Of a DNA stretch of 64,000 nucleotides, positions 5,084 to 62,461 are shown in pieces. Both the position numbers and the translations under genes were made by a program. Each line of letters opens with the position of its first letter. Position 1 is the first letter of the stretch. The notes below the pieces were generated by a model. That model had not been told where the DNA came from, made no database searches, and worked only from the letters and a program-made list of their open reading frames with translations. The stretch is from a virus (Duplodnaviria > Caudoviricetes): positions 4,312 through 68,311 of the IMG/VR virus record IMGVR_UViG_3300036520_000018; one strand, given 5' to 3'.

Positions 5084-5302
5084 ATGGCCAACGTGGTCAC
5101 CGGGCGTGAATCGCTCGCTTCCATTCTCGCGATCTTCGACAAGACGGCCAAGCGCCTCGACACGTTCATCGCTCAGCAACAGGCTGACCGTGAGAAGGCC
5201 AGCGAGAAGGTCAACGCCGCTATTGCCGATCGTGAGACGGCAACTGCCAACATTGAGCAGGCCACCCGCACTCGCGCCAAGATTGCCGAACTGATCGGCT
5301 GA
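5084..5302 (+). CDS. Small coiled-coil protein
   Basis: GAGGAG RBS, 72 aa, helical composition. Confidence 0.7.
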   Translation: MANVVTGRESLASILAIFDKTAKRLDTFIAQQQADREKASEKVNAAIADRETATANIEQATRTRAKIAELIG

Positions 5303-22125: not shown

Positions 22126-22692
22126 ATGACTGCCGACACCTTCAAACCAGCCAACGACAATGGCTTTGTTCAAATGCTTGGCGGCGGCAACACTAACCCA
22201 ACTCAAGCAATGCTAGAGCGTATGCACGATGATGTTTCATACGTGAATCCCAACCTCGCAGTGCAAAAGTCATCAGGTGCATTCAACGTTTATGTAATTG
22301 GGAGCGTCGACCCTGAGTTCATAAAGATTGGCAAAGCCGGCAGTGTCGTTTCGAGGCTTCGTTCAATCCAGACTGGCAATCCATTGAAGCTCTACGTGCA
22401 TCGGATATTCGGCTTCGACAGCACAAGAGACGCAACAAGGGTTGAGGCTTGGGCGCACCAAGATGCTGCGAGAATTTACGGTGGGGCTGTGGGCGAATGG
22501 TTTTCCTGTGGCCCTGTCGAGGCCCACATCCTAATCGCGGATATTTGCGAAAATGAACGGATCAAGTGCTGCATTCGCACCCCAGAAATCGAGCAGCAAT
22601 GGAGGATCGACGAACCTGTTGGCCAAGCTCACCTAAAGAGATTGGCGGAGTGGAGGCAAAGATACTGGGGAGATCAAGCTCGAAGCGTATGA
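22126..22692 (+). CDS. GIY-YIG / T5orf172 domain protein
   Basis: VYVIG...IKIGKA...RLRSIQTGNP...E..AH...GEWF. Confidence 0.8.
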   Translation: MTADTFKPANDNGFVQMLGGGNTNPTQAMLERMHDDVSYVNPNLAVQKSSGAFNVYVIGSVDPEFIKIGKAGSVVSRLRSIQTGNPLKLYVHRIFGFDSTRDATRVEAWAHQDAARIYGGAVGEWFSCGPVEAHILIADICENERIKCCIRTPEIEQQWRIDEPVGQAHLKRLAEWRQRYWGDQARSV

Positions 22693-22732: not shown

Positions 22733-23677
22733 ATGAGCATTACCACGCCGCCCACCAAACTAGCCGAACAATTAACTGCTTTCCTGGCCTATGTGACCAC
22801 GCCCGACCATAAGCCAGAACCGTTGAAGTCCAGCTTTGCTTTTGTGCCAGCGAACGACAACGGCGTGGTTTCCAAGATAGAACGCTTGGCAAATGAAAAG
22901 CTGCTCAAGGTGACGCCGTCTGTTGAGGAAATACTCCGCAACATGAAAGGCGATTGGACATGGGGTGATCCTGAGTTTGTAGTAGACCCCAAAACCGGGG
23001 AAAAAACGCAGTTGGCCAGCACAGGCCCGCTAAAGTCCATCGGCGATCTGAAGTTCAGCGACGGCAAGCAGACGGAGAAGGCACATATGCGCGGACCAGA
23101 CGGCGACACCATTCAATACGACCGACGTATGCCACGCGGCGCAATGCTCGGAACGACAGAAAGCCTTATCGAAGATGCTGGTGGCACGTCTGTTGCCATC
23201 ACCATTGGCAACGGCGCGTTCTGCGAGCGCTTCGGAGTAGATCGGCACGAGTATGTGCCGGGCGGACGCCGGCGCCGTGGAAGGTCATATACCGCAGATG
23301 AGTCCAAGGTCTTGCTGGCCGAGGCTATTGCCAACACGACCGTGTTGCCTGAAGTCAAGAAGTTGCCGCCGGGCATGGCTGCTGGAACGGCGCAATTCTC
23401 CGACCAATTTATCGGTATGAAGATCGGCTCGACCGGGAGTAGCGGGGCGCCTAGCTGGATCGATATCTTCATGGCTGGGGTAGACTGGGAGGAGGATCGG
23501 CGAGCTCATGACGAGATGAGCACGCAGGACAAGTCGGTGTTCGCAGCGGCAATGGAAGCGCAAACTTTGGCCGACATATCGCCAGGAGGGTCTACCTTCC
23601 GAGCGAGAGAGCGTGGAAAACGGCTTCTTGTGGCTGCAAACGACAATTACGCGGCCAACCTGAGAAAACTTGGCTGA
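22733..23677 (+). CDS. Hypothetical protein at a Q-like position (possible late regulator)
   Basis: 314 aa ORF with GGAG RBS, last gene before the structured RNA and late genes; function inferred from position only. Confidence 0.6.
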   Translation: MSITTPPTKLAEQLTAFLAYVTTPDHKPEPLKSSFAFVPANDNGVVSKIERLANEKLLKVTPSVEEILRNMKGDWTWGDPEFVVDPKTGEKTQLASTGPLKSIGDLKFSDGKQTEKAHMRGPDGDTIQYDRRMPRGAMLGTTESLIEDAGGTSVAITIGNGAFCERFGVDRHEYVPGGRRRRGRSYTADESKVLLAEAIANTTVLPEVKKLPPGMAAGTAQFSDQFIGMKIGSTGSSGAPSWIDIFMAGVDWEEDRRAHDEMSTQDKSVFAAAMEAQTLADISPGGSTFRARERGKRLLVAANDNYAANLRKLG

Positions 23678-23711
23678 GTACCGTGCGATTTCGCCGTTTG
23701 GCTGGACATAT

Positions 23712-24210
23712 ATGTGAAGGGGGAGAAATCCCCCGCACATTTCCGCTGCGGCGGACCCGAAGCCATGCTGCACTTCGTTGCAGCCGCTGAGCGTCGGGTA
23801 ACTAAAGATGCGAGGCGAGGGACGTTTGTTACCCCTGGCGCATCTACCCAACCCAGACGGCAATCGGTGGCCCCGCTGTGGTGGCGGAGATATTGTGGCT
23901 TCACCAGCTACAGCCGAGCGTCTGGCCTACATCACCTGGCGCTGTCTCCTCCAGCGACGGTTGATCGCCGGTCTCCCAGCAATGGTTGAGACCGGCAGAA
24001 CATACGGCGGCGAAAGCTGTCCGCTCTTCGCCGGTCCGGGTGGAAACCCCTCGGACATCAGCCCCTGGGCTGTAAGCGGGTCCGCGGCCCCACCGGCGAT
24101 CCAAATCCCGCGAGGGATGTAAGACCTGTTGGCGTATGTCGCAGGCCGTCCGAGTTGATCGCCGGACGTTGATCCCGCCACGCCTCTCAACGATGCGCAC
24201 CCCGGCGGGA
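23712..24210 (+). ncRNA. Candidate large structured RNA or structured late leader
   Basis: More than 12 helices read by eye, several with GNRA loops (GAAA 23725, GCAA 23979, GAAA 24012, GCGA 24110); no convincing ORF. Confidence 0.6.
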
Positions 24211-24243
24211 CAGATTTTGCTTCAACGACGAGGAGAGCCAGCA

Positions 24244-24465
24244 ATGGTCGTCACGCACAATCAACGTATCATCGATGCTTACGACATCTTCGTCGAAGGC
24301 CAAGTGGTACGCTTGCTCACCGGTGGCCCGCCTATGACGGTCATTGAGGTCTGTGAAGGCTGTGGCGATGTCACAGTCGCTTACACGACCAGCGATGGCG
24401 ACATTGACGTGCTGGACTTGCCACCTGTTGCGGTCCGCATCGATGAAACGTGGAGCCCGGAATGA
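24244..24465 (+). CDS. YodC/DUF2158 family protein
   Basis: GQVVRLLTGGPPMTV pattern; GAGGAG RBS. Confidence 0.7.
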   Translation: MVVTHNQRIIDAYDIFVEGQVVRLLTGGPPMTVIEVCEGCGDVTVAYTTSDGDIDVLDLPPVAVRIDETWSPE

Positions 24466-24619
24466 GGCGCCAGCCCAGAACGCTGCTTGGCAAGCTCATT
24501 CGCTGGCTGCGTGGCGGACCATACGCCGACGTTCATTTTGCATAACTTATTTGGGCCTTCGCATTTCTAGAAGCCCGAAACCCGTAAGACCGAAACATCG
24601 ACTGCGTGAGGAGAAACGC

Positions 24620-24850
24620 ATGAACAACATCGAACTTCAACGCCAACATGACGGCAGCCTTAACCTGTTTGTGGCTGGTAATTACGCTGTTGGCTCACGT
24701 GTGAGTGGCATCCAGGAGACGGCTGATGGCATGGCTGCCATCGTGGTAATCCCGCTCAAGCATGCGACAGTATCTGAGCGGAACAACGTGGTGCCTTTTG
24801 TGCCGCGGGTCGTGGCAGGCGATCCGATCGCACCGTTGCAGGCTCGCTAA
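24620..24850 (+). CDS. Hypothetical protein
   Basis: GAGGAG RBS, 76 aa. Confidence 0.6.
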   Translation: MNNIELQRQHDGSLNLFVAGNYAVGSRVSGIQETADGMAAIVVIPLKHATVSERNNVVPFVPRVVAGDPIAPLQAR

Positions 24851-24882: not shown

Positions 24883-25455
24883 ATGCAAATAGCCCTCAAA
24901 TTTACCGGCGACGGACTGCCGAAGTTTGAGCGGGCAGTTGAGGCATTGGGTAGCGAGGCAAAGGCCAGGAGCGCCTACCGCAAGGTCATCAATGCGCAGG
25001 GCACCAAGCTTCGGCAGGACGCCTTGCGCATCATGCCTGACATGGTTGGCTTGCCGCGTAAGACCATCAACAGGGCGCTTGGCGCTCCTGTACGCGCCTC
25101 GAATGCGGCGTTGAGATACATACTCACCACAAAAGGTGGGTACATTTCCTACAAGTACTTTTCTCCCCGAGAAACCCGGCAAGGCGTGTTTGCCAAGCCA
25201 CGAAATCAGAACACTTTTTTACCCAAGAATTTCACCAAGGGTGGCAGGTTTCCGAACCGCGTCGACATCCCGCTTGGTGGGCATGTGTTCAAGAACGTGG
25301 GTGGACGCAAGATCGAGAAGCAGCGCTCCGATGTGCGTATCCCAGAAGAGATGACGCGTGGCTCGATGGCTCGAGCCTTCAACTCCGCGAGCAGCAGGAT
25401 GCTGCCGGCCATAGAGGCCGAGATCAAGAGGTTGACTGGTGGTGCGGTGAGTTGA
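24883..25455 (+). CDS. Minor tail/neck protein (gpZ or HK97 gp10-like)
   Basis: Basic protein, size and composition typical of the family; upstream of terminase. Confidence 0.55.
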   Translation: MQIALKFTGDGLPKFERAVEALGSEAKARSAYRKVINAQGTKLRQDALRIMPDMVGLPRKTINRALGAPVRASNAALRYILTTKGGYISYKYFSPRETRQGVFAKPRNQNTFLPKNFTKGGRFPNRVDIPLGGHVFKNVGGRKIEKQRSDVRIPEEMTRGSMARAFNSASSRMLPAIEAEIKRLTGGAVS

Positions 25456-25643: not shown

Positions 25644-26210
25644 ATGGCGCAAGGCAAAGTCGTAACCCAAGCTGACTTGGCCGATATCTTTGGGGTCACG
25701 ACAGCGACCATTCGGGCCTGGGCTAAGCGCGGGATGCCAGTCTTAGAAGCTGGTGGTTCCGGCCGGCCATCCAAGTTCAACACTGCTGATTGCATCCGCT
25801 GGCGTGAAGCACAAGCCTCGATTGACGCCGCGGATGATGGCGACGACAAGGTTTCCGAGGAGGAAGCCAAGCGGCGGAAGACTTTGGCTGAGGCCATGCT
25901 TGCAGAGCTCAAGCTTGAAGTCGCCCGTGGTCGGCTGGTTCGCATTGATGTTGTGGCGGACGAGGTCGAAGACGCCTTCGCTAATGTGCGGGCGCGCATG
26001 ATCGCCATTGCCGGCAACTTGGCGCTGACCCTGACCAACGAGCCTTCGCCTGCAGCCATCCGAGACCGCATCTATCAAGAGATTTCCAAGGCCCTGAATG
26101 AGCTCGCTATCGACGCCGAGTATATCGGACGATCGGATGACGCTTCGGAAGAGGCTGAAGACGGTGAGGCTGAGAGCGCTGAGGCCACCGCCGAAGCTGA
26201 CCTTAGTTGA
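25644..26210 (+). CDS. terS: Terminase small subunit (Nu1-like)
   Basis: QADLADIFGVTTATIRAW..RGMP HTH; ELKLEVARGRLV. Confidence 0.9.
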   Translation: MAQGKVVTQADLADIFGVTTATIRAWAKRGMPVLEAGGSGRPSKFNTADCIRWREAQASIDAADDGDDKVSEEEAKRRKTLAEAMLAELKLEVARGRLVRIDVVADEVEDAFANVRARMIAIAGNLALTLTNEPSPAAIRDRIYQEISKALNELAIDAEYIGRSDDASEEAEDGEAESAEATAEADLS

Positions 26211-62201: not shown

Positions 62202-62461
62202 GTCCGTGGGCGTGGAAACCCGGACTTGAGATAGGCAGCATCACTGGTCGCGACACAACGATTGGCGTCGTTGTGCAGCCCTGTGCGCTGAAACCTGATT
62301 GCGCATTGGCGTGCGCATCTTCCTGGCCATTTGGCCGGGTGCGATGCGCTATGTCCAGATGATTCCTGTGCTGATCCCACAGGATAGTTAAAGGCCGTCG
62401 GCCTGTCTCTCGAGCAGGTTTCCAACACCCGGCTGCCGGTCTGTTACCGGCTAACGGCCTT
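62202..62461 (+). ncRNA. Second candidate structured RNA or leader
   Basis: About 8 hairpins and nested helices, e.g. CACAACGA/TCGTTGTG, GCGCATC/GATGCGC, AAGGCCGT/ACGGCCTT. Confidence 0.45.

Follow-up and report, generated by a model that had tools for sequence, protein, structure and literature searches.

What occupies the gene-free gap that lies at the head of the late genes in this temperate phage: one large structured RNA, a series of small ones, a leader for the genes downstream, or debris? The phage is a provirus of 68.3 kb from IMG/VR that CheckV scores as 100% complete, and the window, by which we mean the whole stretch of 64,000 nt analyzed here, is its last 64 kb. In type the phage is lambda-like. 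The gap spans about 566–568 nt, from the end of a 314-aa open reading frame (ORF) at position 23677 to the start of a 73-aa ORF at 24244. Further downstream are a neck/tail-completion gene at 24883, assigned with Pfam and PHROGs, a small terminase gene of the Nu1 type starting at 25644, and a large terminase gene of the gpA type starting at 26098. A preliminary description of the locus had placed a densely structured, non-coding region, read from the + strand, at the head of the late genes. The stated position holds, given the packaging genes downstream.

The gap appears to be non-coding. The longest ORF on its + strand (104 aa, 23808–24122) had no homologue among 5.8 billion proteins, and neither this ORF nor a 105-aa ORF on the − strand matched Pfam or PHROGs. 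A coding region was therefore rejected as an explanation. Hidden tRNA genes were rejected as well: ARAGORN and the Rfam model RF00005 identified no tRNA gene in the window and no tRNA remnant. Scans for sigma-70 promoters and intrinsic terminators recognized none in or beside the region. A DNA search of cultured phages returned only two short matches, which correspond to the elements called modules A and B below.

The + strand of the gap (23678–24245) has a minimum free energy of −258.9 kcal/mol, compared with −227.5 ± 7.2 kcal/mol for 100 dinucleotide shuffles (z = −4.34), and none of the 100 shuffles folds as well; the − strand gives z = −2.80. The support is uneven by segment. Segments 23706–23812, 23926–24000 and 24000–24075 have z values of −4.27, −4.35 and −3.07, respectively, and segments 23850–23928, 24070–24135 and 24130–24215 have values of about 0 to −0.8. 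With 23850–23928 and 24070–24215 at the level of the shuffles, energy alone backs only part of the region. Module B, within 23850–23928, is backed instead by covariation, and the abiF hairpin, within 24130–24215, by its score against an Rfam model. The stretch 24072–24172 is mostly without support from energy or covariation, and only a 12-mer at 24154–24165 recurs. For the roughly 170 nt between 24000 and 24172 no relatives were found, and part of this stretch has a folding energy at the level of chance. In modules A and B some G-U pairs are invariant or frequent, which favors the + strand. All of the helices named in the preliminary description are present (23712–23740, 23806–23845, 23853/23925, 23967–23996 and 24105–24118, together with the GAAA hairpin near 24008–24033 and the outer stem 24173/24210). 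The region is structured on the + strand and appears to be non-coding, as had been proposed.

The gap and its borders comprise the following features.

22733–23677, + strand: 314-aa gene (phrog_36072), the constant upstream partner of module A.
23684–23715, + strand: conserved box of shared upstream sequence, a candidate promoter or protein-binding site.
23708–23807, + strand: module A, a putative leader RNA of three hairpins (covariation, covariance model, z = −4.27).
23806–23845, + strand: hairpin A2, with the closing stem AGAUGCG/CGCAUCU (z = −2.0); a similar hairpin with an altered closing stem follows module A in locus L122.
23853–23925, + strand: module B, a tRNA-sized three-way junction (covariation, copies in other phages).
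23931–23965, + strand: module C1, a hairpin with an invariant CU-rich loop that is conserved on variable stems.
23967–23996, + strand: module C2, a GC-rich hairpin with the loop CCAGCAAUGGUU, which is the same in loci L121, L122 and L185.
24008–24071, + strand: three short hairpins at 24008–24033, 24034–24056 and 24059–24071 (z = −3.07), without similarity in any collection searched.
24072–24172, + strand: weakly supported hairpins at 24105–24118 and 24147–24168 (z = −0.8 and 0.0).
24174–24210, + strand: orphan abiF RNA hairpin (RF03085; Rfam 52.5 bits).
24244–24465, + strand: 73-aa ORF, the right boundary, with the ribosome-binding site GAGGAGA at 24230–24236, weak DUF2158/phrog_3261 matches, and DNA that is conserved in L121.

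Some short sequences recur within the window. Hairpin 24034–24056 has a near-copy at 62202–62225 on the + strand (GUCCG stem, GUGGAAACCC core), located in a second gene-poor stretch near the end of the provirus. The combined pattern of both GUCCG hairpins gives two matches where none is expected, a count that applies to a pattern written after both copies had been seen. The 12-mer GTTGATCGCCGG occurs twice in the window (23960–23971 and 24154–24165; 0.01 expected), in each case as the 5′ side of a GC-rich hairpin, the first being module C2 and the second lying just before the abiF hairpin. The same words follow the C1 hairpin in L120, and the 12-mer may be a module joint or a processing signal. 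The C2 loop (23976–23986) and the start-codon region of the 73-aa ORF (24238–24248) share the 11-mer CCAGCAATGGT, which could be a case of operator mimicry or a duplicated gene start.

Module A consists of helices P1 (23712–23740) and P2 (about 23743–23756) and a long bipartite helix P3 (about 23756–23801), which has an invariant internal loop (CAUG opposite C-N-CUGA-R); an invariant 3′ tail, GUAACUA, follows at 23798–23804. In an alignment of 48 sequences, in which P1 has a variable apical insert and P2 is short, 92.2% of cells are paired under the specified structure, and double changes occur in 17 of the 28 pairs. Covariation scores 0.336, compared with 0.140 ± 0.008 for shuffled alignments (0 of 500 reach it) and at most 0.067 when the pairing partners are slid. 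Frequent G-U pairs again place this RNA on the + strand. A covariance model built for module A scores the window copy at 102.7 bits and finds only this one copy in the window.

The association of module A with the upstream gene is tight. The model identifies module A in 79 of 81 loci that carry a homologue of the 314-aa gene, always on the same strand and directly downstream, about 50–110 nt after the mapped end of the protein match in these 79 loci. A pattern scan yielded eight further copies, each with an ORF of 315–340 aa located 22–27 nt upstream. Of these ORFs, three are clearly homologous to the 314-aa protein, and a fourth matches the profile weakly. Positions 23748–23804 of the window are about 85% identical in loci whose 314-aa protein is only about 35% identical. 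When 36 loci were aligned at the start of module A, the box at 23684–23715 appeared as a TGCGAT-type element followed by an A/T-rich, TATAGT-like part that runs into P1, and it may serve as a promoter or a protein-binding site.

The 314-aa protein matches phrog_36072, a family of unknown function in that collection, with an E-value of 9e-62, and has no Pfam match. A search with the single sequence gave no relatives, and a profile of homologues gave 80 viral loci. The 192 homologues come mostly from Hyphomicrobiales-type prophages (Mesorhizobium, Rhizobium, Sinorhizobium and Devosia-type genomes). In an AlphaFold (AF2) model with a mean pLDDT of 71, the protein has a β-rich middle and a helical C-terminal domain. 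Residues 237–314 of the model resemble the sigma-4 domain of 3hug_A with a Z score of 6.6, which is weak and below the caution line of Z 8 given for the tool. Many other ECF sigma-4 entries match the same residues at Z 4–5, and one Q-engaged RNA polymerase complex is among the weak matches. This weak, region-4-like C-terminus is the only sigma-like part seen in the protein, which has no Pfam sigma match. A Foldseek comparison with the PDB returned nothing at E ≤ 0.001, and the protein atlas lists only “hypothetical protein”. Because a Z score of 6.6 falls below the caution line, the predicted role as a transcription factor is only a lead.

Members of the 314-aa family share a nearly invariant AANDN motif near the C-terminus, which is kept in divergent members that precede module A (L328 and L331). 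Rfam places ar35, an alphaproteobacterial sRNA, just above threshold upstream of the 314-aa gene in L137 (1359–1467) and L167 (328–425). In the window, a 188-aa ORF with a T5orf172/MUG113 (GIY-YIG-like) domain is located just upstream of the 314-aa gene, at 22126–22692.

Module B recurs in other phages, for the most part within tRNA arrays. Its conserved junction strands are GGUGGC, GAUAU and CUACAGCC; double changes are seen in 12 of the 23 pairs of an 11-sequence alignment, and two pairs are G-U in every sequence. Positions 23860–23918 of the window match an unannotated gap between the tRNA-Phe and tRNA-Met genes of Microcystis phage Mwe-JY26, and the same three-way junction is present in L120. 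Looser patterns identified true copies in 10 viral contigs, and five of these copies lie within large tRNA arrays. They also identified 12 copies in metagenome contigs, 10 of which are flanked by tRNA genes on the same strand. The module is tRNA-sized and resides in tRNA slots, but its junction is different from that of a tRNA. Within what was searched, it was seen only in phage or unclassified metagenome DNA. The possibility that module B is a bacterial toxin leader was rejected: the pattern gave a single match in 401 Pseudomonadota genomes, the same number as the control and hence at chance level.

The C1 loop, UCUCCUCC (23945–23952), is CU-rich, invariant and complementary to Shine-Dalgarno sequences, including the GAGGAGA at 24230–24236. 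It occurs in 44 distinct sequences of related phages with 26 different 5′ arms, and it is exposed in 35 of the 44 folds when each sequence is folded individually, an approach used in place of alignment pair counting, which was dropped because the MAFFT stems were inconsistent. The C2 loop is likewise kept on changed, still complementary stems in L121, L122 and L185. Alphaproteobacterial small RNAs of the CcsR or “cuckoo” type have CCUCCUCCC-type anti-Shine-Dalgarno loops. C1 resembles them in presenting an invariant CU-rich loop, complementary to ribosome-binding sites of the GGAGG type, on a variable stem, but it differs in being phage-borne, a single hairpin and without an Rfam family at E ≤ 10. 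The C1 loop may pair with ribosome-binding sites.

The same position in related phages is used for tRNA genes. In 16 of 20 relatives, Rfam identifies one to three tRNA genes on the same strand in this slot, a few hundred nucleotides after the 314-aa gene. In two of the loci (L137 and L166) the tRNA gene starts 1 nt past the model-aligned end of module A, and in relatives tRNA genes stand between modules A and C.

The preliminary description had named large phage RNAs such as GOLLD and ROOL. On a reading of that kind, the whole 500 nt would be one large ornate RNA that folds as a unit. The whole region does beat its shuffles, and its minimum-energy fold closes long-range helices. However, several pieces of evidence speak against such a unit: (i) No Rfam family of large RNAs matches the window at the gathering threshold, or positions 23400–24700 at E ≤ 10. 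(ii) Module A was seen only alongside the 314-aa gene, and its covariance model finds it in 0 of 97 viral loci that bear the abiF hairpin. (iii) Module B occurs in the tRNA arrays of unrelated phages, and the abiF hairpin in still other phages. (iv) The relatives have tRNA genes between modules A and C, and none of them keeps the long-range helices. We therefore rejected a single large RNA, which we regard as extremely improbable, because its parts are inherited separately. Pieces that are conserved separately in different phages and swapped with tRNA genes indicate a small-RNA array, and the comparison with GOLLD and ROOL fails for this reason.

Each of the elements, namely modules A, B, C1/C2 and the abiF hairpin, is conserved on its own in other phages and shows compensatory changes there. 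The best explanation of the gap is that it is the small-RNA gene slot of a temperate phage, made up of co-oriented, independently folding and exchangeable modules. It is best read as a backbone of modules A and C, fixed in this phage group, and an exchangeable cargo of tRNAs, module B and abiF hairpins. A new class of non-coding RNA had also been suggested, and this idea survives for modules A, B and C1 taken singly, which show covariation and have no Rfam match even at E ≤ 10, but not for the region as a whole. Phage tRNA arrays can include stable RNAs other than tRNAs, as in the tRNA cluster of T4, and in Stx phages tRNA genes are located just after the late promoter. The present array is like these in that it occupies the same slot as the co-oriented tRNAs of 16 of 20 relatives, and in that module B and abiF hairpins lie between tRNAs in other phages. 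It differs in that all of its members are non-tRNA modules. With the slot of this phage free of tRNAs, cleavage by RNase P or RNase Z cannot be taken for granted.

A further account sees the region chiefly as a leader that acts in cis on the late operon, with module A, alone or with the 314-aa protein, acting as an antiterminator and the rest serving as passive spacer. In its favor, the region stands at the start of the packaging genes and contains no terminator-like site, and module A invariably comes first, in tight linkage with the sigma-4-like gene (whose weak fold matches include the Q-engaged polymerase). A long untranslated transcript would also need protection from Rho. The put RNA of phage HK022 and the qut/6S region of lambda are known processive antitermination RNAs or late-operon leaders. 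Like them, module A is a compact multi-hairpin RNA that starts a long rightward unit into the late genes and adjoins a putative transcription-factor gene, and its position is compatible with a put-type element. On the other hand, it has no sequence, structure or fold similarity to a known antitermination RNA, the promoter scan recognized none, and in relatives a tRNA follows module A at once, so that RNase P would cut module A off. Moreover, the other modules are conserved with covariation and hence are not spacer. As an account of the whole region, a cis-acting leader is therefore unlikely; for module A it is compatible with the small-RNA array, and RNA-based antitermination, which the preliminary description had offered for the region at large, is possible for module A only.

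The 3′ end of the array does belong to a known family, contrary to what had first been stated. Positions 24174–24210 match the abiF RNA (RF03085) in a local search at 52.5 bits, compared with a gathering threshold of 37, over model positions 1–37 of 37 (E = 1.4e-08), and this is the only Rfam family found in the window. The hairpin has a 6-bp outer stem, a 3-bp inner stem, the conserved 11-nt loop and a 3′ bulge. All nine pairs are standard; in the inner stem, one A-U pair of the consensus is replaced by C-G, a compensatory change. No further copy was found in 23400–24700 at E ≤ 10, so the hairpin is single and does not form a ToxI-type tandem repeat.

The abiF RNA is the antitoxin of AbiF, an HEPN RNase of the Abi_2 family that causes abortive infection; the RNA binds this protein directly and neutralizes it in trans (PMC12373285; PMC12737573). 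In AbiF type III toxin-antitoxin systems the RNA stands directly upstream of the Abi_2/AbiF HEPN gene. Here, no Abi_2 gene was found in the whole 68-kb provirus, and the neighboring ORFs have no Abi_2 match, in a search that could overlook very divergent HEPN toxins. As a control, the same search finds Abi_2 in all three of three alphaproteobacterial genomes with a true motif, in which the ORF just past the hairpin is Abi_2 with E-values of 1e-50 to 1e-54. The phage hairpin is identical at 34 of 36 positions to two hairpins just upstream of Abi_2 in Sphingomonadaceae/Sphingobium genomes. It shares the 37-nt architecture of characterized members of the family, namely AbiFr of a Prevotellaceae AbiF and RCd22 of Clostridioides difficile. 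RCd22, however, has two copies, and whereas these RNAs occupy a toxin leader position, the phage hairpin ends a small-RNA array without an AbiF/Abi_2 gene.

The orphan state is also the rule in the viral records examined. More than 117 viral contigs contain the 15-nt core of the abiF loop, and in nearly all of them the outer stems covary around this fixed loop. Abi_2 is present anywhere in the record in only two of 100 viral records with the loop core, and in two of 31 when only records at least 90% complete are considered. When ORFs of at least 100 aa are considered, the first one after the hairpin is Abi_2 in 0 of 73 viral loci and in 28 of 69 bacterial loci (Fisher p = 5e-11). A tRNA on the same strand within 300 nt is found in 30 of 117 viral loci, often at a distance of 16–37 nt, and in 3 of 120 bacterial loci (p = 1e-7).

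The neighborhoods of the viral hairpins have some recurring members. The first sizeable ORF after the hairpin is most commonly an HNH endonuclease (roughly 18 of 73), and in three of 73 it is a small terminase. The hairpin thus frequently stands immediately upstream of the packaging module. This is the case here and also in L174, where an abiF-like hairpin with a changed loop (5260–5296), below the Rfam threshold, follows two tRNA genes and precedes an HNH gene.

Two alternatives to a function in trans were weighed for this hairpin. According to the first, it is the leftover of an AbiF module, the other hairpins are decayed tRNA genes, and the array is junk. Complete AbiF systems are carried by some prophages (PMC12373285), two of the 100 viral records do contain Abi_2, and the slot of the relatives holds tRNAs. 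Against this, the hairpin scores 52.5 bits with every pair intact, and nearly all of the 117 viral copies keep the fixed loop and covarying stems without a toxin, which points to selection on the hairpin as an orphan. Conservation of modules A, B and C1 extends to phages in which the neighboring protein is only about 35% identical, and no tRNA remnant was recognized by ARAGORN or Rfam. Decay is thus a very improbable explanation.

According to the second, the hairpin acts in cis on the 73-aa ORF as a terminator, an attenuator or a translational operator. The bacterial abiF RNA also lowers abiF expression in cis by premature termination (PMC12373285). In the phage, the stem is followed by a run of four U, the 73-aa ORF starts 33 nt downstream, and HNH or terminase genes are often next in phages, in the proportions given above. 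However, the downstream neighbors are very varied, with tRNAs in about a quarter of the loci, and the terminator scan does not call the hairpin. The loop is strictly conserved across unrelated phages, which fits a common partner in trans better than many targets in cis. We therefore consider action on the 73-aa ORF to be improbable, although less so than decay.

Abi_2, the predicted target in trans, is present in 12 of 201 genomes (about 6%) of the likely host order, that of a Hyphomicrobiales genome. The probable hosts thus belong to a clade in which the target exists but is sparse. Phage RNAs that act against abortive-infection RNases have precedents. Pseudo-ToxI of Pectobacterium phage PhiTE is a phage RNA countermeasure to a type III system. 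The likeness is that of a phage RNA standing in for the host antitoxin RNA so that the abortive-infection RNase stays inactive, but pseudo-ToxI is a tandem-repeat mimic directed at another toxin family. In lactococcal phage sk1, a hairpin located close to the cos site is reported to inhibit AbiF itself and, according to a review, is unlike the AbiF ncRNA (PMC13064643). The hairpin studied here is also near the packaging region. Unlike the sk1 hairpin, it is a full member of the abiF family, with a predicted function.

Taken together, we favor, with a probability of about 0.6, an array of small RNAs that is transcribed as one unit ahead of the late genes and in which the abiF hairpin is an anti-AbiF decoy. 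The array would be made as a single rightward transcript and then cut into small RNAs, in the manner of tRNA arrays. The abiF hairpin, made without a toxin gene, would bind the host AbiF RNase in place of its own antitoxin RNA, keeping AbiF silent when infection stops the host supply of antitoxin and thereby blocking abortive infection. Such antitoxin mimicry would be the most economical mechanism for the hairpin. Module A, always first and coupled to the gene for a sigma-4-like protein, may be a leader that starts or secures transcription, either by binding a protein or by antitermination over the long untranslated stretch.

A broader and more tentative extension, which we consider possible but doubtful, is that the tRNA-type slots of phages are RNA islands carrying several decoys. 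The abiF hairpin would then disarm AbiF, module B would mimic or decoy another RNA-directed host nuclease, and module A with the 314-aa protein would form an undescribed RNA–protein device by which Hyphomicrobiales phages launch or protect their late transcription.

AbiF has been proposed as the ancestor of Cas13, and its RNA antitoxin was characterized only in 2025. A full-text literature search found no paper on orphan abiF hairpins in phage tRNA arrays as decoys; nearest to this reading are the sk1 cos-region hairpin (PMC13064643) and a cyanophage genome note that gives an abiF match beside other RNA motifs without interpretation (PMC9964418). In addition, the analysis yields three covariation-supported RNA motifs absent from Rfam, modules A, B and C1. 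Module A is tied to a conserved phage protein, possibly a late transcription factor, and module B lives in tRNA arrays from cyanophages to alphaproteobacterial prophages. These motifs offer concrete ways to study what RNAs other than tRNAs do in phage tRNA arrays. Should solitary antitoxin hairpins prove common in phage RNA arrays and act as decoys, they would constitute a widespread form of RNA-based counter-defense.
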